From: a virus | Length of the DNA stretch: 45,203 nt | Reading direction: 5' to 3' (one strand) | Virus genome (UHGV): UHGV-0169311 | Shown here: in pieces, positions 7,561-45,153 of the stretch | How positions within the stretch are numbered: position 1 is the first letter of the stretch | Layout: every line of letters begins with the position of its first letter | Translations under genes and position numbers: made by a program | Notes under the pieces: generated by a model | What the model saw: the letters and a program-made list of their open reading frames with translations, nothing else | Database searches by the model: none | Told to the model about the DNA's origin: nothing

Positions 7561-7986
7561 TTATTTTCTAGATGATGTTGGGGACCAAGGTAACGTTATA
7601 GTATCTAACACTGTGTTTTTGAACATATTTTCAAAAACTGTTTTTGTACATACATATACATAATTTTCAAAAAACCAAGCATTTTCATTATAAAAATCCT
7701 CAGTTACTTCTTCATCGAGGTCACACTCAAATGTTAGTGTCAAGGTAGCCTCTGCCTTGAACAATACATCCTCACCATCATCAAAATCTTTTTTATCGCG
7801 AGGGAAACCAGTTATCGATGGCTTAACTTCAATAAAGAGCCAATTTCCATCTTCATCTTTTTGAGGAACAACGTGATGCTCAGAAAATTTTAAGCTATAT
7901 TTTCCGCCTTCAGAATTATCACTGTCGTCGATAAAAAGGGAAGAACCCTCGAGATCAAATCCCTTAAAGCGAATTTTATCAAGCAT
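7561..7986 (-). CDS. Hypothetical acidic protein, translationally coupled to hicB
   Basis: ATG at 7986 overlaps the hicB TGA (TGATG). 141-aa Asp/Glu-rich product; AT-rich DNA. Confidence 0.5.
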   Translation of the reverse strand: MLDKIRFKGFDLEGSSLFIDDSDNSEGGKYSLKFSEHHVVPQKDEDGNWLFIEVKPSITGFPRDKKDFDDGEDVLFKAEATLTLTFECDLDEEVTEDFYNENAWFFENYVYVCTKTVFENMFKNTVLDTITLPWSPTSSRK

Positions 7987-8459
7987 CAATGTGGCACTCC
8001 GTTGTCTACTGAAACTTCCCAATAGGTCTCTTCTGTACGTCTACGGGATGAGAAGAAAGTAACTTCTCTAACATCCCTCGGTTTTTCAAAGTGGTAGTGA
8101 ACCTCTTTTTTCCCATTAACTGACTCACTGACAGCCTGTTTTACATAATCGTTTAAAGTCATATTCTTAGCTTTAGCAGCTAAATATGCTTTTTTATGCA
8201 GGGATTCACCTATCCGGATGTTAAACGAACCACTCATTGTCTTATCTGGAGATTTTCCTATCTCTTCACAAGTGGAGAGGTAATCGTCCACGGCCTCCTC
8301 AAAGGCTGCACGGAGTTCTGCAACCGTTGCACCCTCATAAGTGACGAGATCATTTATACATTCGAGTTTTCCATGCATCACCCCATCTTCAAATGAAATG
8401 CTGGAGCTACCATAGTAACCTTTGTATTTCATCAAGTTATTCATGATCATCAATCTCAT
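7986..8459 (-). CDS. hicB: HicB-family antitoxin with C-terminal extension
   Basis: MKYKGYYG ... NDLVTYEGATVAELRAAFEEAVDDYL ... SGSFNIRIGESLHKKAYLAAKAKNMTLNDYVKQAV matches the HicB pattern (RNase H-like fold plus RHH) from memory; about 45 extra residues follow. Start ambiguous (ATGs at 8459, 8450, 8444). Confidence 0.75.
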   Translation of the reverse strand: MRLMIMNNLMKYKGYYGSSSISFEDGVMHGKLECINDLVTYEGATVAELRAAFEEAVDDYLSTCEEIGKSPDKTMSGSFNIRIGESLHKKAYLAAKAKNMTLNDYVKQAVSESVNGKKEVHYHFEKPRDVREVTFFSSRRRTEETYWEVSVDNGVPH

Positions 8460-8691
8460 CTAACAGCTGTTTAACTTCTTCCAAGACGTACCTTTTGAGG
8501 GTGTTTTCAGGATGAGGCTCATGAAAAATGACCAATCTATCAACACGTTGGTTGTAAAATTTACGGCCAGAACCTCGTTTAGCATTCAAAAGCTTGAAGC
8601 CATACTGGTTCATGAGAGTAACGAACTCATCCCAAGTAAAATTTTTGGGTAAGCCGTCTAACTTTGACTTTAGCTTTTCCTTTCTTCCCAC
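8437..8691 (-). CDS. hicA: HicA-family toxin (mRNA interferase)
   Basis: 84-aa ORF with GFKLLNAKRGSGRKFYNQ ... LVIFHEPHP ... LKRYVLEEVKQLL, the HicA/YcfA pattern (from memory); directly upstream of and overlapping hicB. Confidence 0.7.
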   Translation of the reverse strand: MGRKEKLKSKLDGLPKNFTWDEFVTLMNQYGFKLLNAKRGSGRKFYNQRVDRLVIFHEPHPENTLKRYVLEEVKQLLDEIDDHE

Positions 8692-8718: not shown

Positions 8719-8739
8719 TGCAACTGAAATCTAGTTGCA
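8719..8739. promoter_or_regulatory. Inverted repeat TGCAACT-N7-AGTTGCA upstream of hicA
   Basis: Perfect 7-bp arms, 28-48 bp upstream of the hicA start on the minus strand; candidate autoregulatory operator. Confidence 0.3.
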
Positions 8740-8851
8740 AGCTATGCTATCTATAGACAAAATGTTTCATTGTTATATCAGAAGATACCCGATCTGTTTC
8801 ACCTTCAACTACTATAATTTGTTATAAGCTATCAACCGGTGGAACTGCGAA

Positions 8852-8995: not shown

Positions 8996-9388
8996 TTACT
9001 CGGCATCGCCCTTAATCCGCCGCCCCATATATTTGGCGTACAGATCGTCGAGTTCCTTCAGGCGCAGTGATACCGCCTTAAGAACTCCACCCTGATCCTC
9101 TTCGGGGAGTTGACGGAAAAGGCGTAAAAGCTCTTGCTCATTACTTTTTAATCCATCATTGGGCCCTATATCCTGCCCCAAAACCCAGGCTAAATTCACA
9201 CCAAGCGCATCAGCTAGCTTAAGTGCGGAGTTTTTCCCAATAGTTCCCCTTACAAACCAGTTGTTAACCGACTGGGATGTTACGCCACAAATTCTGGCCA
9301 GATCTGCTTTTGAGAGATGTTTACTATTCGTGATCTCATTGAGTCGTCTGACCTGTGGGTTATCTGATTCGTGTGTATTTTTTCTCAT
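8996..9388 (-). CDS. HTH repressor-like protein (paralog 2)
   Basis: 130 aa from the ATG at 9388 (track start is GTG 9403). HTH segment SKADLARICGVTSQSVNNWF and C-terminal helix LPEEDQ ... LRLKELDDLYAKYM. Paralogous to 9408..9791. Confidence 0.55.
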   Translation of the reverse strand: MRKNTHESDNPQVRRLNEITNSKHLSKADLARICGVTSQSVNNWFVRGTIGKNSALKLADALGVNLAWVLGQDIGPNDGLKSNEQELLRLFRQLPEEDQGGVLKAVSLRLKELDDLYAKYMGRRIKGDAE

Positions 9389-9407
9389 GTACAAGAGTAT
9401 CACTTAG

Positions 9408-9791
9408 CTAATCAGCATCGCCCCTGATTCTGCGATTCATGTACTTGGCATATAGTTCATCGAGTTCCTTCAGACGCAGGGAGAAGATCCTTATCATATT
9501 CTGCTGTTCTTCTTCCGGTAACTGTCTGTAGAGCTCCAGAATACGTTGTTCATCAGGCTTAAGACCATCCTTCTCTCCAACATCCTCACCAAGTAGCCAG
9601 GGGACGGACACCCCTGCAGCGTCAGCAACCGCTAATGCAGAACTTTTGCTGATTCTTCCTGTTTTGAACCAACTGGAAACAGCTTGCTTACTGACGCCAG
9701 CAACCCTGGCCATCTCTGTTTTAGAGAAACCTTTCCTGTTCAGTTCTGTAAGCCTGGAAATCAGCTCATTTGTCATTGTTTTTTCGCTCAT
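9408..9791 (-). CDS. HTH repressor-like protein, probable prophage repressor (paralog 1)
   Basis: 127 aa; HTH segment SKTEMARVAGVSKQAVSSWF; short, no peptidase domain; divergent from the Cro-like gene across an operator-bearing intergenic region. Confidence 0.6.
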   Translation of the reverse strand: MSEKTMTNELISRLTELNRKGFSKTEMARVAGVSKQAVSSWFKTGRISKSSALAVADAAGVSVPWLLGEDVGEKDGLKPDEQRILELYRQLPEEEQQNMIRIFSLRLKELDELYAKYMNRRIRGDAD

Positions 9792-36818: not shown

Positions 36819-39800
36819 ATGGCTACATCTACTCCGATTAGAGGCCGCAAGGGCGGCAGCTCCAGTTCACGCACCCCGACTGAACAACCAGACGATCTCC
36901 AGTCCGTAGCGAAAGCCAAAATTCTTGTTGCACTGGGAGAGGGCGAATTTGCAGGGCAGTTGACGGCGAAGGATATCTATCTCGATGGCACGCCACTGGA
37001 GAATGCAGACGGATCGCAAAACTTCAGTGGCGTGGCGTGGGAATTTCGTCCGGGGACTCAGGCACAAAAATATATTCAGGGTATCCCCGGCACAGAAAAT
37101 GAAATCAGCGTGGGCACCGAAGTGTCAAGCACCACCGGCTGGACACATACCTTTACCAACACGCAACTGTCAGCCGTTCGCCTGCGCCTCAAGTGGCCAT
37201 CGCTTTTTAAACAGGAGGATGATGGCGATCTGGTTGGCTATTCAATTAACTACGCTATTGATCTGCAGACCGATGGCGGCACCTGGCAGACGGTACTTAA
37301 TACCAGCGTAACCGGCAAGACAACTTCCGGCTACGAACGCAGCCATCGTATCGATTTACCACAGGCAGGCAGTACATGGACGGTGCGCCTGCGTAAGCTT
37401 ACGGCGGATGCCAACAGCGCGAAAATTGGCGACACGATGACGCTGCAGAGCTACACAGAGGTTATTGACGCCAAACTGCGTTATCCAAATACCGCGCTGC
37501 TGTACATCGAATTCGACTCAAGCCAGTTTAACGGCTCTATCCCGCAAATATCCTGCGAACCGCGAGGGCGTGTAATCCGCGTTCCGGATACGTATGACCC
37601 GGAGACCCGCACCTACAGCGGCACATGGACAGGGGCGTTTAAGTGGGCGTGGACGGATAATCCAGCCTGGATTTTTTACGATCTGGTGGTGAGCGACCGC
37701 TTTGGGCTGGGCAATCGCCTGACGGCGGCCAATATTGATAAATGGACGCTTTATCAGGTCGCGCAATATTGCGATCAGCCGGTTCCTGATGGTAAAGGCG
37801 GTAGCGGCACTGAGCCTCGCTATACCTGTAACGTGTACGTGCAGGAGAGGAATGACGCCTATACCGTGTTACGTGATTTTGCGGCGATATTCCGGGGCAT
37901 GACGTACTGGGGTGGCGATCAAATCGTTGCGCTGGCGGATATGCCCCGCGATGTGGATTACAGCTACACGCGTGCAAACGTGGTTAATGGGCGCTTTACC
38001 TATTCGGGCAGCACCACCAAAACCCGCTATACCACGGCACTGGTTTCCTGGTCCGATCCGGGTAATGCCTACGCGGATGCGATGGAGCCTGTATTTGAGC
38101 AGGATCTCGTTGCTCGCTTTGGCACAAATCAGCTCGAAATGACAGCCATTGGTTGTACCCGGCAGTCAGAGGCAAACCGCAAAGGACGTTGGGGTATCCT
38201 GACCAATAACAAGGATCGCATCGTGTCGTTCGATGTTGGTCTTGACGGTAAGATCCCACAGCCTGGTTATATCATCGCGGTTGCCGATGAGCTGCTTTCC
38301 GGAAAAGTGATGGGAGGGCGCATCAGCGCGGTTAACGGTCGCGTTATCACGCTTGATCGTGATTCGGCAGCCGCTCCCGGAAGCCGTCTGATGGTTAACC
38401 TTCCGTCCGGCGCATCGCAGAGCAGGACGATACAGAGCGTAAACGGGCGGGCCGTCACTGTGACAACGGCATACAGCGAAACACCTGCAGTGGAATCGGT
38501 GTGGATTGTCGAGTCTGAAGAGCTTTACGCGCAGCAATATCGCGTTATCAGCGTTACGGATAATAATGACGGAACGTATTCGATTGCTGGCGCTTTGCAC
38601 GATCCGGATAAATATGCGCGTATCGATACCGGTGCCATTATCGACCAGCGGCCAATAAGTGTAATTCCGCCCGGTAATCAGTCCCCGCCAGCTAATATCG
38701 CGATCAGTTCGTTTTCTGTCGTTCAGCAGAATATCAGCGTTGAGACCATGCGCGTCAGCTGGGACCAGGCGAAAAATGCTATCGCGTATGAGGCACAGTG
38801 GCGTCGCAATGACGGGAACTGGGTGAATGTGCCGCGCAGCTCCACCACGTCATTCGATGTTCCGGGGATTTATGCAGGACGCTACCTGGTTCGCGTGCGT
38901 GCCATCAATGCCGCCGAAATTTCATCTGGGTGGGGCTATTCAGAAGAGAAAACGTTGACGGGTAAAGTGGGAAACCCACCGAAGCCGGTTGGCTTCATCG
39001 CTTCTGAAAACGTGGTATTCGGTATCGAGCTGAACTGGGGATTCCCGGCGAATACCGAAGACACGCTGAAGACGGAAATTCAGTACAGCCTGACCGGTAG
39101 CGAAGATGATGCAATGCTGCTGGCCGATGTGCCTTATCCGCAGCGCAAATATCAGCAGATGGGTCTTAAGGCAGGGCAGATTTTCTGGTATCGCGCGCAA
39201 CTGGTCGACAGAACGGGAAACGAGTCCGGGTATACCGACTGGGTGCGAGGTCAGGCCAGCATCGATGTTTCCGATATCACCGATGTGATCCTGGAGGAGA
39301 TCAAAGACTCCGCTACGTTTAAAGATCTGATTGAGAGCGCAGTGGACAGCAATGAAAAAATTGCTGGCATGGCTGACGAAATCAAAAACCATGCCGACGA
39401 GCTGGAGCAGCAGGCGAAAGATATACAGGAAAACGCTGACGGGCTGGCGCAGGCGGCGGTAAAAATCGATGAGATTTCCGTTTCAATGGACGGTATGACA
39501 GGAGGCGTGAAGAATTCGGCAATTGCGATAATCCAGAATGGGCTGGCGCAGGTTGTCAGTCGTCGTTCCCAGACAGCAACAAACGCCGGGAACAGTGCCA
39601 GTATAGACAGAGTGGATACTACGATTGCCGATACCAGCCAGGCGGTCGCACGCGCGCTGGTCACACTGGATGCAGAAGCTGGTGGCAATATCTCTAACTC
39701 AACGGACCTGACAGAAACTCTTGCTGATTTCACCCAGGCTTCGGCAACAAAAATCAACACTCTGACTGTTAAATCAGGCGAAAACAGTGCAGCGATAAAC

Positions 39801-40274
39801 GTCAACGCACAGGCTATAGCAGATGTAAACGGTAACCTCAGCGCGATGTATAACATCAAGGTGGGGGTGTCCAGTAACGGGCAGTATTACGCTGCCGGGA
39901 TGGGTATTGGGGTTCAAAATACACCCTCCGGCATGCAGTCACAGGTAATCTTCCTGGCAGACCGTTTCGCCGTGACTACTATGGTCGGCGGGACTGTAAC
40001 ACTGCCGTTCGTTATCCAGAATGGCCAGGCCATTATCAGGGATACAGTCATTGGCGACGGGACCATAAGCAATGCAAAAATTGGCAATTACATCCAGTCG
40101 AACAATTATGTTGCCGGCTCTGTTGGCTGGAAACTGGATAAGTCCGGGACGTTTGAGAACTACGGTTCGACAGCTGGGGAGGGAGCCATGAAGCAGACCA
40201 ACCAGACAATCAGCGTCAAGGATGGCAACAACGTTCTGAGAGTGCAGGTTGGCCGATTAACGGGGGTGTTCTGA
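36819..40274 (+). CDS. J: Central tail fibre / host specificity protein J
   Basis: 1151 aa; N-terminal two thirds colinear with lambda gpJ (YTEVIDAK.RYPNTAL ...); C-terminal third divergent. Confidence 0.9.
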   Translation: MATSTPIRGRKGGSSSSRTPTEQPDDLQSVAKAKILVALGEGEFAGQLTAKDIYLDGTPLENADGSQNFSGVAWEFRPGTQAQKYIQGIPGTENEISVGTEVSSTTGWTHTFTNTQLSAVRLRLKWPSLFKQEDDGDLVGYSINYAIDLQTDGGTWQTVLNTSVTGKTTSGYERSHRIDLPQAGSTWTVRLRKLTADANSAKIGDTMTLQSYTEVIDAKLRYPNTALLYIEFDSSQFNGSIPQISCEPRGRVIRVPDTYDPETRTYSGTWTGAFKWAWTDNPAWIFYDLVVSDRFGLGNRLTAANIDKWTLYQVAQYCDQPVPDGKGGSGTEPRYTCNVYVQERNDAYTVLRDFAAIFRGMTYWGGDQIVALADMPRDVDYSYTRANVVNGRFTYSGSTTKTRYTTALVSWSDPGNAYADAMEPVFEQDLVARFGTNQLEMTAIGCTRQSEANRKGRWGILTNNKDRIVSFDVGLDGKIPQPGYIIAVADELLSGKVMGGRISAVNGRVITLDRDSAAAPGSRLMVNLPSGASQSRTIQSVNGRAVTVTTAYSETPAVESVWIVESEELYAQQYRVISVTDNNDGTYSIAGALHDPDKYARIDTGAIIDQRPISVIPPGNQSPPANIAISSFSVVQQNISVETMRVSWDQAKNAIAYEAQWRRNDGNWVNVPRSSTTSFDVPGIYAGRYLVRVRAINAAEISSGWGYSEEKTLTGKVGNPPKPVGFIASENVVFGIELNWGFPANTEDTLKTEIQYSLTGSEDDAMLLADVPYPQRKYQQMGLKAGQIFWYRAQLVDRTGNESGYTDWVRGQASIDVSDITDVILEEIKDSATFKDLIESAVDSNEKIAGMADEIKNHADELEQQAKDIQENADGLAQAAVKIDEISVSMDGMTGGVKNSAIAIIQNGLAQVVSRRSQTATNAGNSASIDRVDTTIADTSQAVARALVTLDAEAGGNISNSTDLTETLADFTQASATKINTLTVKSGENSAAINVNAQAIADVNGNLSAMYNIKVGVSSNGQYYAAGMGIGVQNTPSGMQSQVIFLADRFAVTTMVGGTVTLPFVIQNGQAIIRDTVIGDGTISNAKIGNYIQSNNYVAGSVGWKLDKSGTFENYGSTAGEGAMKQTNQTISVKDGNNVLRVQVGRLTGVF

Positions 40275-40275
40275 T

Positions 40276-40578
40276 ATGGCTTATGGAATACAGACCTGGG
40301 ATGCTTCGGGAAACCCCAACAACTACGGAATCAAGCCCGTTTCCGTTGTTGGACGTATACAACTTGCCGCCGGACAAAACTCCGGCAGCTGGTCTTTCAC
40401 TGTACCCTCAGGAATGAAGGTCGGTTTTGCGCTCTCACTTGATGAAGGAGGTAACAGCGTAGGGAGGAGCATTGTCGCGTCAGGGAACACAATAACCGTA
40501 ACCGCAGCCTCTTCTGTGGGCCTGGGTAATTACCCGGCCTCTAAATGTGAGGTGGTCGTTTTCATGGAGAAAGCATAA
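40276..40578 (+). CDS. Hypothetical protein (post-J)
   Basis: 100 aa, starts 2 nt after the J stop; shares a WDASG motif with the next ORF. Confidence 0.5.
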   Translation: MAYGIQTWDASGNPNNYGIKPVSVVGRIQLAAGQNSGSWSFTVPSGMKVGFALSLDEGGNSVGRSIVASGNTITVTAASSVGLGNYPASKCEVVVFMEKA

Positions 40579-41252
40579 TGGCCGAATTTGGCGCGATGAT
40601 ATTAATGGATAACGGGAATCCCTTTGTAACGCCACAATCAACGCCTTTCTGTCTTTACGGGAAGTATACCTTCAATTCATCCGCGAATGGCAGTTCTCAG
40701 CAGGTTGCTCAAAATATCGCTTTAAACGCTGATTACCCAGTGATGGTTTTTATCAAAACCACCAATACAGCACAGCCCACTCCGGTTATGTCTTACAGGA
40801 ACGGCGGTAATGTGTATGTTGCTGGTGTTAATCCCTACAACCAAAGTTTCACTTTAACGGCGTACGTTTTTGCCATATTCCCGCAGATATTACCGAAATG
40901 GGGTTTGGCAATATGGGATGCGAGCGGAAAGCTTGTGTTAACTAATGAGTCCCGTGTGCTATCAGACCTGCAGACGGTTGGCACGCCTGGTGCAAACGGC
41001 GGGATAAATATTGACCAGACGCTGAGCGGGTCATGGGCCGTTGCACCTGCTCAGTTGGGTCAGACCATCATTGTGAATAATTCAACCCAGCCTCCGACTA
41101 TCTACACGATAAATGCTTATTCTTCATGCAGGTTTGACGGGGCCAATACGAGGATAAACGCAGGGGGGACCTCCACTGGGGCAGGTTCACCTGGAGGGGG
41201 AACGAATACTGGCATTTCATTAACCGCCATAAATACAGCGGCCTATGATTGA
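40578..41252 (+). CDS. Hypothetical protein (post-J)
   Basis: 224 aa, start overlaps the upstream stop; Gly/Thr/Asn-rich. Confidence 0.5.
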   Translation: MAEFGAMILMDNGNPFVTPQSTPFCLYGKYTFNSSANGSSQQVAQNIALNADYPVMVFIKTTNTAQPTPVMSYRNGGNVYVAGVNPYNQSFTLTAYVFAIFPQILPKWGLAIWDASGKLVLTNESRVLSDLQTVGTPGANGGINIDQTLSGSWAVAPAQLGQTIIVNNSTQPPTIYTINAYSSCRFDGANTRINAGGTSTGAGSPGGGTNTGISLTAINTAAYD

Positions 41253-41290
41253 TTGATCGTTTTTAGCGATCAATAACATAATATTGATCT
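41252..41290. promoter_or_regulatory. Cluster of three GATC sites within TTGAT/ATCAA palindromes upstream of the lipoprotein gene
   Basis: GATC at ~41255, 41268, 41286; inverted repeat ATTGATCG-N7-CGATCAAT. Confidence 0.3.
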
Positions 41291-41363
41291 ATCCAATCAA
41301 TTATACCCACCAGAATTGTATTGGTATCGTCTAAGATACTGAATTCCTCTGGATACTATCAAA

Positions 41364-41597
41364 ATGAGAAAACTGATTATCTGCATGGCAGGCGCTGTCA
41401 TGCTTACAGGATGCGCTGGCGTAATTGAGAAACAGGAACCAGTTTGCAGCGGCACTGCAATCGTTGGCGGTCAGGAAACTACGGTTCAGATTTACGGTGT
41501 GCGTAAACAAAACAACCAGACGCAGTACCGGGCTGGATATCCTTTCAGCTGGCGCTGGGTAAGTGCGAATACATTTACCGAAACAACCTGCAAATAA
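41364..41597 (+). CDS. Small lipoprotein, Cor-like (superinfection exclusion candidate)
   Basis: Signal peptide with lipobox LTGC; size and post-J position as for Cor of phi80/HK022-type phages; motif QNNQTQYRAGYPFSWRWVSANTFTETTC recalled as Cor-like (uncertain). Confidence 0.45.
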   Translation: MRKLIICMAGAVMLTGCAGVIEKQEPVCSGTAIVGGQETTVQIYGVRKQNNQTQYRAGYPFSWRWVSANTFTETTCK

Positions 41598-41616
41598 CCC
41601 ACTACGCTTAAACATA

Positions 41617-41641
41617 AACCTCGCTCCGGCGGGGTTTTTTT
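41617..41641 (+). terminator. Rho-independent terminator (AACCUCGC-UCCG-GCGGGGUU plus U-tract)
   Basis: Stem with one G-U pair, followed by TTTTTTT; third occurrence of the CCTCGC/GCGGGG stem. Confidence 0.6.
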
Positions 41642-41657
41642 ATTGCCTGGAGAAAAT

Positions 41658-43061
41658 ATGCTTTATAACACCGGCACCATCGCCATTAATGGAAATACCG
41701 CCACCGGGACGGGTACAAACTGGACGGCACCGGCCAGCCAGGTCCGCGCTGGCCAGACGATTATCGTGATGTCTAACCCGGTGCAGCTGTTTCAGATTTC
41801 ATCCGTGAACAGCGCCACGTCAATGACGGTTACTCCAGCTGCTTCCCCGGCGCTGAGCGGCCAGAAGTATGGAATTCTTGTGTCGGACATTATCTCGGTC
41901 GACGGACTGGCACAGGCCATGTCTCAGCTCATCAATGAGTATGACGAGAATATCGGTGCGTGGGAAACGTTCGCCACCACCTCAGCAAACCAAAGCATCA
42001 CAGTTACCATCAACGGCACCGCCGTAACCATCCCAGGCATCGGTAAACTTGCGCAGAAAGGGAGCAATGGTGCGCTTGCAATCGCTGACGGCGGGACCGG
42101 GGCAACGAAGGCAGAAGACGCTCGCACAAACCTCGGTTTAGGCACATTCGTTACCCAGGAAGATCAGAGCATCGTCTATGGCCCGTCGCGGGATCATGCG
42201 CTTGTCGTACGAAAAGACGAATGGGGCGTCGTTGTTTCGGATAATGGTAATCCGGTACCACTCGGAACCCGTTATGGCGGAACGGGGGCAACCACCGGAG
42301 ATTACTGGGGAGCCTGTACTAACATTGGAGCCATAAGACAAAAGACAGCACGGTTTGTGCCTGGTGATACACCGACGAACATTTACTGGAAAAACAGTAC
42401 CGGCTTCATTACTGGCCAGGTTGAAGGTGGAGCCTTAGGGGCATGGATTGATATTACCTCTGCCGATGAAGCCGCCCGAATGCAGCTAATAGGTTTTTAT
42501 GACGACAATAATGGTAAACGTGGGTTCGGTTATAAGGTTTATAACCCCAACTCTCAGTCCTGGTACAATCTCGCCGTAGTGCGTGATACAAGCAACACAA
42601 CCGTAGATAGCAACGGGTTTATCAAAATCGCGTCACCAATTGTGAAGATTTACGGTGACGGACGATATGAAACTAACGATGAATCAGAAGGTGTTACGGT
42701 CACTCGTCTGGATGTAGGCCAATATCTCATTGATGGGTGTGAATCACTCAATTCAGACGCTGCCTGGGGCGGTATCGACGGAGGGTTTGAGATTCCCACA
42801 GACCGGAATAAACAACCGCTGATTTGGCTGGATTATGAGGTTAATGCCGATGGTTCTGTGTTGGTCAAAACCTATCACCGTACCCACCCTGACGCACCAG
42901 CGTTCGCCAGAAACGAACAGGACGGCGTGAGTAATGGCGATCCAGTCGACATTCCGCGCGACCAGTTTGTGTCCGTTCGTGTCGAAATGCCTGCTGATTC
43001 TTTATACAACCAAAAGCTCAGAGCCGCAGAGCAGGCCCTCATTACAGATACAGGTGAATAA
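41658..43061 (+). CDS. Tail fibre protein (constant part)
   Basis: Start MLYNTGTIAINGNTATG (track ORF from 41643); contains the fibre motif GGTGATKAEDARTNLGLG; its stop lies 3 nt before the left inverted repeat. Confidence 0.65.
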   Translation: MLYNTGTIAINGNTATGTGTNWTAPASQVRAGQTIIVMSNPVQLFQISSVNSATSMTVTPAASPALSGQKYGILVSDIISVDGLAQAMSQLINEYDENIGAWETFATTSANQSITVTINGTAVTIPGIGKLAQKGSNGALAIADGGTGATKAEDARTNLGLGTFVTQEDQSIVYGPSRDHALVVRKDEWGVVVSDNGNPVPLGTRYGGTGATTGDYWGACTNIGAIRQKTARFVPGDTPTNIYWKNSTGFITGQVEGGALGAWIDITSADEAARMQLIGFYDDNNGKRGFGYKVYNPNSQSWYNLAVVRDTSNTTVDSNGFIKIASPIVKIYGDGRYETNDESEGVTVTRLDVGQYLIDGCESLNSDAAWGGIDGGFEIPTDRNKQPLIWLDYEVNADGSVLVKTYHRTHPDAPAFARNEQDGVSNGDPVDIPRDQFVSVRVEMPADSLYNQKLRAAEQALITDTGE

Positions 43062-43063
43062 AG

Positions 43064-43089
43064 GTCGGTTTAGGAAACAGCGCTACGAG
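43064..43089. repeat. Left inverted repeat / crossover region of the invertible segment
   Basis: gtcggtttaggaaacagcgctacgag is the exact reverse complement of the right repeat; contains a gix/hix-like half site (TTTCCTAAACCGAC on the complementary strand). Confidence 0.75.
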
Positions 43090-43114
43090 GGACGTTGGAT
43101 CAGCAGCGGGAACA

Positions 43115-43771
43115 GTGGCCGCTGGCGATGATTCTCGCCTCGGTACGGTGAACGGAAAGACCGGGGGGCAACTTACAACAGCATCGATTTATACAGGTGC
43201 GAGCACGCAAAATGCAAATAACCGAGTAGGTATGCAGTCCATTGCCGCTAATTCGGTTGGTGGTCCTGTTGGCCGAACAACCTTTCAATATTTTAATGAC
43301 ACAGGATATGTGGGTGCTACGAGAGGCGGCGGTTACTTAATCCAGGATATCCGTATAGGTATAGATAAAACTGACGGTACATGGGTTACCTGGTCATTTG
43401 ATTATGGCGGAAATGCGACAGCTAACAATGGCGCCTGGGTCAATAATTCCGACCGTCGTATTAAAACAAATACCAGGCCGATTGAATCTCCGCTTGAAAA
43501 AATGAAGATGTTACGTGGCTATACATGGGAACGACTGGATAACGCACCTCCTGGCCAGGGGTTTATCGCGCAGGAGCTGATGGAAGTGATACCGACGGCT
43601 GTTTTCATCGGCGGCACAACCATCCTTGATGACGGGACACAGATTGAAGATACATTATCGGTCGATGTAGCAGGTGCGGCCGCAGCACTTCACCACGAAG
43701 CCATGCTGGCATTGATGGAAAAAGTTGAAGAACTAACCGAAAAATTCGAGGCGTTGCAGGCGGGTAGCTAA
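43115..43771 (+). CDS. Fibre-tip cassette A with C-terminal intramolecular chaperone (peptidase S74-like)
   Basis: Track ORF (GTG). Motif SDRRIKTNTRP ... MLRGYTWERLD ... GFIAQELMEVIP typical of S74 auto-cleaving chaperone domains; reading frame is open from 43058 with no ATG. Confidence 0.55.
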   Translation: MAAGDDSRLGTVNGKTGGQLTTASIYTGASTQNANNRVGMQSIAANSVGGPVGRTTFQYFNDTGYVGATRGGGYLIQDIRIGIDKTDGTWVTWSFDYGGNATANNGAWVNNSDRRIKTNTRPIESPLEKMKMLRGYTWERLDNAPPGQGFIAQELMEVIPTAVFIGGTTILDDGTQIEDTLSVDVAGAAAALHHEAMLALMEKVEELTEKFEALQAGS

Positions 43772-43775
43772 ATAA

Positions 43776-44570
43776 TTACTTGGCCAGTAAAAAATTATCT
43801 ACCTGTGTTTTAAGGCTATCAATCTTGACCATGAGAGCAAGGATCGCTTCATGGTGAAGAGCTGCCGCCACGCCGAACGTATCAACAGATTTTACATCCT
43901 CAATTTCTGAGCCATCTCGTAAGGTTGTTTTTCCATATGATTTCACTGCGTCAGGGAAAACCTTCTCAACTTCCTGGGCTATGAATCCATACCCGTGCGC
44001 AGGGGTATCGAGGCGGTCACATTCGACGCCTCGAAGCTGCTGCATTTTCATTAGCGGATCAGCGATTACCGTAACATTTTCTTTGATGCGTTCATCAGAT
44101 GCTGTTACCCAATTGCCTGTGGCAGCGCCATTTGAATGGAAAACCCAAGTGACCATCCCTTCCTGATTCGACCCTTTCAGGTTTAGTGTGACATTATCAA
44201 AATTAGCCCCGCCACCACGGGCTCCCCCGAAAGACCATTCTCCTGTATACCAGGTGCCTTTGATGAGGTTGACGTAATTACCTGTATTCGGGTTATAGCC
44301 ACTGGCCACGACCAGGCTGATGCCGTTATTCATCAATCCACCGCCACCATTATCCCCAGAATTGATGGCAAATCCGGGGTTACCGTTAATCCCTGGCTGG
44401 ACTGTAATTGGGCTCGTAATTTTCCCACCCACTTTCTGATCGACAGAATTGAGCCGTGAATCATCGCCGGCGGCGACCGTTCCCGCCGCTGCGCCAACGT
44501 CTCTCGTAGCGCTGTTTCCTAAACCGACGTTTAATAGATTGCCACGGGGCGGCCTGGCCGATAACTTCAC
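43776..44570 (-). CDS. Fibre-tip cassette B with C-terminal intramolecular chaperone (peptidase S74-like)
   Basis: Motif SDERIKENVTV ... LRGVECDRLD ... GFIAQEVEKVFP; shares the repeat-encoded VGLGNSATRD ... AAGDDSRL N-terminal block with cassette A; its GTG start lies outside the segment on the invertase side. Confidence 0.55.
   Translation of the reverse strand: MKLSARPPRGNLLNVGLGNSATRDVGAAAGTVAAGDDSRLNSVDQKVGGKITSPITVQPGINGNPGFAINSGDNGGGGLMNNGISLVVASGYNPNTGNYVNLIKGTWYTGEWSFGGARGGGANFDNVTLNLKGSNQEGMVTWVFHSNGAATGNWVTASDERIKENVTVIADPLMKMQQLRGVECDRLDTPAHGYGFIAQEVEKVFPDAVKSYGKTTLRDGSEIEDVKSVDTFGVAAALHHEAILALMVKIDSLKTQVDNFLLAK
44503..44528. repeat. Right inverted repeat / crossover region of the invertible segment
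   Basis: ctcgtagcgctgtttcctaaaccgac; coordinates +/- 1 nt. Confidence 0.7.
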
Positions 44571-44604
44571 CTGATTTTTTTGCAGAATTTATAGGGTGAA
44601 AAAT

Positions 44605-45153
44605 ATGCAAATTGGCTATGTCAGAGTGTCAACAAATGACCAAAATACAGATCTCCAGCGCCAAGCTCTCGAACGCGCAGGATGTGAACAGGTTTTTGAA
44701 GAAAAAATGAGCGGGACGGTAGCGAACCGGCCAGCGCTCAAAAAGCTTCTGCGGACTCTGAATGCGGGCGATACACTGGTGGTGTGGAAGCTGGACAGGA
44801 TAGGCCGCAACGTTCTGCATGCGCTGTTGATGTTCCAGCAGTTACAGGAAAAGGGTATCAACTTCCGCAGTATTACCGATGGCGTGGATCTCAAAACAGC
44901 CAGCGGCCGCTATAACTTTCGTAACATCCTTTCCGCAGCACAATATGAATCTGATCTTAATAGCGAACGTACCTTAGCAGGGCTGGCCGTAGCCAGGGCA
45001 AAATGGCGAGTTGGTGGTCGCAGGCCTAAGTTCACGGATGAGCAATGGCGGGAAATGGGGGAGCGGATGGCAACCGGTGAATCACGACAAAGCGTATCAA
45101 AAACGTATGGAGTAGGGCTCTCAACTCTGTATAAAAAGTTTCCAGCTAGCTGA
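44605..45153 (+). CDS. DNA invertase (serine recombinase, Gin/Pin/Hin family)
   Basis: MQIGYVRVSTNDQNTDLQRQALERAGCE matches the Gin/Pin N-terminus with the catalytic Ser in VRVSTNDQ; C-terminal HTH. Track ORF starts at an upstream GTG (44596). Confidence 0.9.
   Translation: MQIGYVRVSTNDQNTDLQRQALERAGCEQVFEEKMSGTVANRPALKKLLRTLNAGDTLVVWKLDRIGRNVLHALLMFQQLQEKGINFRSITDGVDLKTASGRYNFRNILSAAQYESDLNSERTLAGLAVARAKWRVGGRRPKFTDEQWREMGERMATGESRQSVSKTYGVGLSTLYKKFPAS

Follow-up and report, generated by a model that had tools for sequence, protein, structure and literature searches.

A putative OxyR/Dam operator upstream of the superinfection exclusion gene cor in a lambdoid phage

Introduction

Several accessory genes carried by phages or their hosts are controlled jointly by the regulator OxyR and by Dam methylation of GATC sites. 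In phage P22, the half-sites upstream of gtr are bound by OxyR, and Dam methylation abolishes this binding (Broadbent 2010, PMC2909390); the mom gene of phage Mu is also under the control of Dam and OxyR (PMC2909390). At Salmonella opvAB, the half-site OBSD is located directly 5′ of the −35 element, the half-sites are spaced as for OxyR in its reduced form, and expression requires OxyR (PMC4856963). Here we describe the region upstream of cor, which codes for a phage exclusion lipoprotein, in the virus genome UHGV-0169311 (45,203 nt, analysed as one strand, 5′ to 3′; the whole of this stretch is called the window). The spacer in front of cor contains three GATC sites, and an earlier note on this DNA had proposed, from their clustering, an epigenetic switch of the pap, agn43 or gtr kind. 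On comparative evidence, the element upstream of cor is a genuine regulatory module that has been conserved, and it quite probably combines an OxyR/Dam operator with a weak promoter. With a probability of roughly 0.55, OxyR and Dam would compete at this operator in such a way that cor expression becomes methylation-dependent and heritably bistable.

The cor gene is a textbook example of lysogenic conversion and superinfection exclusion, and is generally treated as being expressed constitutively from the prophage. Virulent phages have comparable exclusion lipoproteins, such as Llp of T5 and the T1-type Cor, which are FhuA-blocking functional analogues or homologues of Cor. The phi80 Cor protein inactivates FhuA and excludes FhuA-dependent phages, ferrichrome uptake is lowered by Cor, and the Cor proteins of HK022, N15 and phi80 have been reported as protecting lysogens (PMC3594210). 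The full-text literature, with subscription literature outside the scope of our search, yielded nothing linking cor to OxyR or Dam, and the methylome papers on ST131 and Salmonella yielded nothing on the cor locus.

Results

Two predicted OxyR-type half-sites upstream of cor

The three GATC sites were found at the positions given in the earlier note, inside TTGAT/ATCAA inverted repeats. GATC1 to GATC3 span 35 bp, with spacings of 13 and 18 bp, and the features of the region are as follows, with distances counted from the predicted transcription start.

41255-41258, unstranded: GATC1, a Dam site at about −83
41268-41271, unstranded: GATC2, a Dam site at about −70
41286-41289, unstranded: GATC3, a Dam site at about −52
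41253-41273, unstranded: perfect dyad TTGATCG-N7-CGATCAA, holding GATC1 and GATC2
41284-41288 and 41296-41300, unstranded: inverted repeat TTGAT/ATCAA, with GATC3 in the left arm
41256-41270, unstranded: predicted distal OxyR half-site H1, ATCGTTTTTAGCGAT, 8/10, centred at about −75
41287-41301, unstranded: predicted proximal OxyR half-site H3, ATCTATCCAATCAAT, 7/10, centred at about −44, 16 bp past H1
41278-41292, unstranded: alternative half-site H2, ATAATATTGATCTAT, 8/10 in the window phage, 7 bp past H1

Half-sites were scored by the number of matches, out of 10, to the OxyR consensus ATAGxTxxxAxCTAT, with 7/10 as the threshold for membership. Scored in this way, the 46-bp segment 41256-41301, directly 5′ of the −35 position, is a predicted operator consisting of two OxyR-type half-sites 16 bp apart. 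GATC1 and GATC2 overlap both tetrads of H1, while GATC3 overlaps the first tetrad of H3, which begins at the A of GATC3.

Comparison of the dyad ATTGATCGTTTTTAGCGATCAAT with the OxyR(A) half-site of P22 gtr, ATTGATCGTTGTTACCGATCAAT, revealed identity at 21 of 23 positions, a score reached by 1 of 2000 shuffles, and the cor region is identical to the agn43 operator at 31 of 39 positions, a score that was reached by none of 2000 shuffles. When all three operators are read as two half-sites, cor scores 8/10 and 7/10 with a gap of 16 bp, agn43 scores 8 and 8 with a gap of 17 bp, and Mu mom scores 7 and 7 with a gap of 16 bp. The dyad is unique in the window, even with two mismatches allowed.

The clustering of GATC sites, which the earlier note had regarded as a hallmark in itself, does not distinguish this region: random placement of the 155 GATC sites of the window gives an expectation of 0.74 triples within 35 bp and a probability of 0.51 for at least one, so that such a cluster would turn up about half the time. 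What does go beyond chance is the exact 13+18 layout (0.004 expected per window), the match to the OxyR consensus, and the invariance of the GATC sites across diverged homologues. A second GATC triple (39287-39327, with spacings of 12 and 25 bp) differs in layout, is located in coding sequence inside the J-like gene, and is probably due to chance. Over the window as a whole, GATC is depleted, with 155 sites vs 189 ± 13 in dinucleotide-preserving shuffles.

Conservation and choice of register

We gathered 113 cor loci from species-representative genomes and from IMG/VR, and the 73 distinct upstream regions considered below are those carrying the CGATCAA/CGATAAA motif. Counted from the ATG, the three GATC sites are at −109, −96 and −78, give or take 1-4 nt, with Cor identity going down to about 50%, and their spacing recurs at cor in Escherichia, Enterobacter, Pseudocitrobacter, Trabulsiella, Rahnella, Hafnia, Buttiauxella and Kluyvera. 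In 10 representatives less than 80% identical, ranging from Escherichia to Rahnella and Kluyvera, 12 of 12 GATC columns are invariant (100%), compared with an average of 70% for the other upstream columns; in a permutation test, 6 of 20000 random tetramer triples equalled the GATC columns in conservation. H1 retains a score of 8/10 in 63 of the 73 distinct regions, and a block with the consensus AAYCAATTATM is conserved at 41295-41305. The spacer sequence 41245-41304 can also be viewed as a nested palindrome of about 60 bp centred near 41274, with the stop codon of the upstream gene in its left arm and the conserved block AATCAATTATA as its right arm.

An alternative reading of the operator relies on the canonical 37-mer with a 7-bp gap, that is, on H1 plus H2 (8/10 and 8/10). 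The consensus ATAG-N7-CTAT-N7-ATAG-N7-CTAT is matched at 41256-41292 with 3 mismatches, and there are 2 such matches in the window vs 0.09 expected. This reading is not favoured, since the third tetrad (the first one of H2) is unconserved, with a homologue mean of 6.1/10, and the same frame scores 3-6/10 in the other cassettes described below; H2 is probably not the conserved register. The sole other four-tetrad match in the window, at 8731-8767, also has 3 mismatches and contains no GATC. It coincides with the promoter region of a HicA/HicB toxin-antitoxin pair on the minus strand (HicA 8437-8691, HicB 7986-8459), and could be a HicB operator rather than an OxyR site. We also sought a gtr-like third half-site at the cor operator, and did not find one.

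Searches for sites of other regulators in the window gave 45 matches to the Lrp consensus vs 48 expected, and IHF and DnaA likewise remained at chance level. The best match to the Fur box, 11/19, is at a level reached at 327 window positions and falls into non-conserved spacer, and no Fur/Dam arrangement of the sci1 type was found. The cor upstream region has no two GATC sites separated by about 102 bp, and neither a papI- nor a papB-like gene adjoins cor. Thus, of the switch kinds named at the outset, the gtr/agn43 type is retained, with comparative support for an OxyR/Dam-type operator, while pap is not, in view of the missing 102-bp pair and the chance-level Lrp matches. Judged from sequence, the regulatory idea of the earlier note is partly supported: the kind of switch it names (gtr, agn43) appears right, whereas neither its statistical argument nor its comparison with pap holds. 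No phage-encoded Dam-type methylase was found by the DPPY motif, and the methylase is therefore assumed to be host Dam.

Natural variants of the operator

Some cor loci have lost part of the GATC set. In HK022-type phages (L093-L099), GATC1 and GATC3 are lost and GATC2 is kept; in N15 (L244, 2500-2560), GATC2 and GATC3 are lost and GATC1 is kept; in both cases the OxyR consensus positions are preserved. Rare single-base variants occur in otherwise identical sequence, with L043 hitting GATC1, which creates the consensus tetrad ATAG, and L041 hitting GATC2. In L102, a deletion has moved the GATC pair next to the −10 element. Together, the operator variants of the HK022 group, N15, L041, L043 and L102 look like locked alleles.

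No GATC is present in the 220 nt upstream of the cor homologues of the virulent phages T1 and Dhillonvirus (jat), or of those of phi367 (a Stx-like podophage) and SSU5, and its absence in the virulent phages suggests that the operator may be linked to lysogeny. Distant cor loci from Erwinia, Pantoea and relatives (L026, L029, L032, L034, L035) have a GATC pair only 9 bp apart, TCGATC-N4-CGATC, which is located about 70-120 nt upstream of cor and replaces the 13+18 layout.

Promoter, leader and terminator

The predicted operator is followed by the elements of a short transcription unit.

41302-41307, plus strand: −35 position TATACC, weak, abutting half-site H3 and 17 nt 5′ of the −10 hexamer
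41322-41330, plus strand: extended −10 element TGGTATCGT, with the hexamer TATCGT at 41325-41330
near 41338, plus strand: predicted transcription start, giving a leader of about 26 nt
41350-41354, plus strand: Shine-Dalgarno-like TGGAT, 10 nt before the ATG
41616-41644, plus strand: cor intrinsic terminator, a 9-bp stem followed by a T-run, with the hairpin at 41616-41637

The extended −10 block TTGnTAnnGT (41320-41330) is conserved across genera in cor upstream regions, as is, among cor loci, the Shine-Dalgarno-like block GGGAT/TGGAT. In the phi80 record FN582354, a −10 element and a transcription start are annotated at positions equivalent to the extended −10 element and the start near 41338. 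The terminator is annotated at the same place in identical and related phage records, in agreement with the terminator of its own that the earlier note had assigned to the gene; searches against Rfam gave sub-threshold matches only, all of them on the terminator hairpin, and no family match. As predicted from these signals, cor has a weak sigma-70 promoter of its own and, together with the terminator, forms a self-contained transcription unit. Two further sigma-70-like candidates from a consensus scan, TTAACC-18-TATGAT (41220-41249) and TTGATC-18-CATAAT (41253-41282), were rejected as promoters, since their hexamers fall within coding sequence or sequence that is not conserved, and other genera lack them.

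The cor gene and its surroundings

The gene downstream of the operator and its neighbours are as follows.

41364-41597, plus strand: cor, coding for a 77-aa phage exclusion lipoprotein that starts MRKLIICMAGAVMLTGC, as assigned by NCBIfam, PHROG and identity to phi80
41364-41411, plus strand: Cor signal peptide, MRKLIICMAGAVMLTG, with cleavage before C
41403-41414, plus strand: Cor lipobox LTGC, residues 14-17
36819-40274: J-like gene, upstream of cor with two small ORFs in between
40276-40578 and 40578-41252: homologues of phi80 gp22 and gp23, the two small ORFs between the J-like gene and the cor spacer
111 bp: spacer between the gp23 homologue and the cor ATG
41643-43061: side tail-fibre gene, directly after the cor terminator region

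The open reading frame (ORF) at 41364-41597 matches the NCBIfam equivalog NF047972, “phage exclusion lipoprotein Cor”, over its full length with 140.9 bits, far above the cut-off of 31, and PHROG 1119 with an E-value of 7e-37, and its protein is 100% identical to phi80 Cor. By sequence homology it is Cor itself, a gene already known; the earlier note had called it a Cor-like gene for a 77-aa lipoprotein with an LTGC lipobox, distal to J, and these features were borne out. Residues G16 and C17 are nearly invariant among 32 family members. Neither Cor nor either of the two upstream small ORFs (40276-40578, 40578-41252) yielded a match in a Pfam search. A 601-bp cor region is 100% identical at the DNA level to HK140, mEp237, mEp213 and mEp043, where the gene is annotated as Cor, and 94% identical to phi80; of 5426 complete E. 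coli genomes, 49 contain it. E. coli ECONIH4 (NZ_CP026399.1) is an example of a complete genome with the identical locus, its GATC sites being at about 26523, 26536 and 26554.

The gene order around cor is common to phi80, mEp213 and N15, and the cor genes of phi80, N15, HK022 and mEp167 occupy the same slot, in which a J-like gene and homologues of gp22/gp23 precede cor and the side tail fibre follows it. They also have the lipobox and a promoter and terminator of their own, as in the window, and there is no difference at the protein level. The difference lies upstream: all three GATC sites are kept in the window phage and in phi80, whereas two are lost in N15 and in HK022.

The window as a whole is a lambdoid phage similar to mEp237 and HK225, whose structural module is of the N15/phi80 type. 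Downstream of the side tail-fibre gene is an invertible tail-fibre segment (43059-45153), in which 83-nt inverted repeats (43059-43141 and 44451-44533, 88% complementary) bracket two tail-fibre-tip ORFs in opposite orientation (plus strand, 43115-43771; minus strand, 43776-44570), which have S74 chaperone domains; a Hin/Gin-type invertase (44596-45153) is located next to these ORFs. Elsewhere in the window, two tandem paralogous genes on the minus strand, 8996-9403 (135 aa) and 9408-9791 (127 aa), code for CI-type HTH repressor-like proteins.

The same arrangement ahead of other prophage genes

Scanning IMG/VR for the dyad returned more than 120 contigs, and among the first 80 of these about one-quarter to one-third are cor loci. 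A third GATC is present exactly 18 bp away in 20 of 26 non-cor intergenic dyad matches, vs 5 of 29 matches inside long ORFs. In the 15-mer starting at the A of the third GATC, 20 distinct non-cor operators have T6 in 17 cases and A10, C12 and T15 in all 20; these four are OxyR half-site positions, and none of them was part of the dyad search pattern. A −10-type hexamer (A2, T6) is found exactly 23 nt past the proximal half-site in 22 of 24 distinct non-cor cassettes, while at other offsets the count does not exceed 8 of 24. The start codon of a small ORF, in most cases preceded by a Shine-Dalgarno-like motif, follows 51-63 nt past the proximal half-site. The overall cassette layout is thus a two-GATC half-site, 16 bp, a one-GATC half-site, the −35 element, 17 nt, and the −10 element, and cor fits this geometry exactly, with TATACC, 17 nt, TATCGT, and the ATG 62 nt past H3.

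Non-cor cassettes were seen on IMG/VR contigs L125, L130, L132, L135, L144, L154, L157, L159, L167 and L168, and further ones on L172, L183, L186, L188, L190, L192, L194 and L198. Their cargo includes 39-40-aa membrane peptides ending in DETEKDYEECPYD, which adjoin a P2-type tail sheath gene; a 47-aa ORF starting MELNQEEAEMLAGF, along with 66- and 76-aa ORFs; and 95-103-aa membrane proteins, MSVKYTDGAKVF, located before tail fibres. Most of the small ORFs behind non-cor cassettes have no PHROG match. Variant forms are present on L127 (12091-12160) and L145 (738-980), namely, a four-GATC operator version with a phage DNA methyltransferase gene (PHROG 56) starting about 20 nt later, and a 13+19 version with a DinI-like gene 219 nt away.

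We tentatively suggest that OxyR/Dam operator and promoter together may form a portable cassette, with a start codon about 55-62 nt past the operator, which temperate phages of Enterobacterales have placed before many unrelated small accessory genes and of which the cor regulatory region would be one copy. Should this be the case, epigenetic phase variation at the population level would extend to superinfection exclusion and to other traits of lysogenic conversion, and natural single-base GATC losses (HK022, N15, L041, L043) would represent locked alleles.

Discussion

A proposed model for heritable switching of cor

In the proposed mechanism, a tetramer of host OxyR, in the extended register of the reduced form, would bind the cor operator only if its GATC sites are unmethylated. 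Bound OxyR would shield these sites from Dam, and methylated sites would exclude OxyR. After replication, OxyR and Dam would compete for the hemimethylated DNA, and because this competition recurs after each replication, each state would tend to be inherited. A lysogen population would then be a mix of cor-ON and cor-OFF lineages. As to its purpose, we can only speculate that such a mix may act as a hedge, in which some cells are protected from FhuA-dependent phages and colicin M while others can still take up ferrichrome via FhuA.

By analogy with characterized operators, the OxyR-bound, unmethylated state is somewhat more likely to be ON, with the methylated state OFF or basal. This sign is favoured by the half-site geometry, which resembles that of opvAB and of LysR-type activators, by the poor −35 element, and by the occurrence of GATC-losing variants in phages with documented Cor activity. 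The opposite sign, with OxyR repressing as it does at Mu mom and agn43, is somewhat less favoured.

Several points weigh against the switch model. Cor exclusion has been described as a bulk property of lysogens (PMC3594210), and such bulk protection argues against a large OFF fraction. The loss of sites in HK022 and N15 implies that the Dam component is dispensable for a working cor. Clustering of three GATC sites in 35 bp, with a chance probability of about 0.5, is no evidence by itself. The H1 and H3 scores of 8/10 and 7/10 are modest, given that the window has 18 half-sites at 8/10 or better vs 11.4 expected, and the H1-H3 gap is 16 bp vs 17 bp in gtr. The transcription start of cor is a predicted one, as are OxyR binding, the methylation state and heterogeneous expression at cor. 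Finally, Mu mom has the same layout as cor without known phase variation (PMC2909390).

Some of these points would be accommodated by an OxyR/Dam operator that works without a heritable switch, which we consider rather unlikely. In that case, cor would be coupled to the DNA methylation state or to the OxyR peroxide response: its expression would follow the methylation of newly injected, rapidly replicating or prophage DNA, as in Mu mom, or FhuA would be shut to limit iron entry under oxidative stress, and in both versions the GATC sites would only modulate binding. OxyR regulons limit iron toxicity, and mom, with its three-GATC layout under Dam/OxyR control without known phase variation, provides a precedent. 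The reduction of ferrichrome uptake by Cor (PMC3594210) and the reported protection of bulk lysogens point in the same direction. However, the tested OxyR operators that are replicated with the chromosome and have GATC on their tetrads (agn43, gtr, opvAB) all phase-vary; ordinary redox-responsive OxyR sites need no GATC; and at cor, the consensus is broken across genera so as to make Dam sites (ATCG for ATAG, CGAT for CTAT). The absence of the element from cor of T1, Dhillonvirus jat, phi367 and SSU5 also argues against a purely lytic-cycle role.

It is unlikely that the palindromes are bound by another methylation-sensitive host protein, such as HdfR or another LysR-type regulator, Lrp, or SeqA, which acts on hemimethylated sites. 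The sequence GATCGTTTT bears what we take to be a resemblance to the pap GATC box, and ATCG-N7-CGAT agrees with the generic LysR motif T-N11-A. In the Salmonella std upstream activating sequence (UAS), HdfR binds a region with three GATC sites spaced 13 and 9 bp, and the 9-bp spacing is that of the HdfR-bound GATC pair (PMC6735912), which lends weight to this possibility in view of the 9-bp pairs, rather than 13+18, at the Erwinia/Pantoea-type cor loci. Yet in std the GATC located 13 bp away is dispensable for HdfR (PMC6735912), matches to Lrp, Fur, IHF and DnaA sites are at chance level, and the hallmarks of pap are absent. Very improbable is a GATC cluster with no regulatory role, whether a chance product of an AT-rich palindromic spacer, where three sites in 35 bp are expected about half the time, or part of an RNA or DNA hairpin ending the upstream late-gene message: although the palindromic region has an RNA folding z of −4.2, the GATC bases are invariant while their neighbours have diverged, the same layout occurs at a fixed distance from the promoters of unrelated genes, and the hairpin or terminator reading was rejected, as the arms do not covary but are invariant, with no U-run after them.

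If the switch model is correct, sister cells of a lysogen would differ in phage resistance, colicin M resistance and ferrichrome uptake, which bears on exclusion measurements and on the performance of cocktails of FhuA-using phages. Exclusion would join O-antigen modification (gtr, opvAB) and DNA modification (mom) as a third class of phage cargo under OxyR/Dam switches, and the presence of the cassette before other prophage genes suggests a general, transferable route to bistable accessory traits.

Comparison with known OxyR/Dam systems

Among the described systems, E. coli agn43 (flu) has three GATC sites spaced 19+13, compared with 13+18 at cor. Its operator is located at and downstream of the transcription start, where OxyR is a repressor, whereas the cor operator is 5′ of the −35 position. 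The three GATC sites of Mu mom are spaced 18+13, the mirror image of the cor arrangement, and in both cases they belong to a phage accessory gene; however, the mom operator is about 18 bp farther from its promoter than that of cor, and sequence similarity beyond the GATC sites is weak. The mom promoter depends on the phage activator C and is repressed by OxyR.

P22 gtr is, like cor, a prophage accessory gene with an extended −10 promoter and a leader of 25-26 nt. The cor dyad corresponds to the OxyR(A) and OxyR(C) half-sites of gtr, with GATC pairs 13 bp apart in both systems. In gtr there are three half-sites 17 bp apart with four GATC sites, allowing two alternative OxyR positions (AB on, BC off), while cor has two half-sites 16 bp apart with three GATC sites, and one OxyR position only. 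The repressing OxyR(C) half-site of gtr is about 6 bp closer to the promoter and overlaps the −35 element (PMC2909390), in contrast to H3 of cor, which abuts it. In Salmonella opvAB, OBSC and OBSD have their centres at −75 and −43 (PMC4856963), compared with about −75 and −44 from the predicted start at cor. As at cor, the GATC sites of opvAB overlap the half-sites, and its functional half-sites score 7-10/10 (PMC4856963), a range that includes both H1 and H3; unlike cor, opvAB has four half-sites with alternating occupancy.

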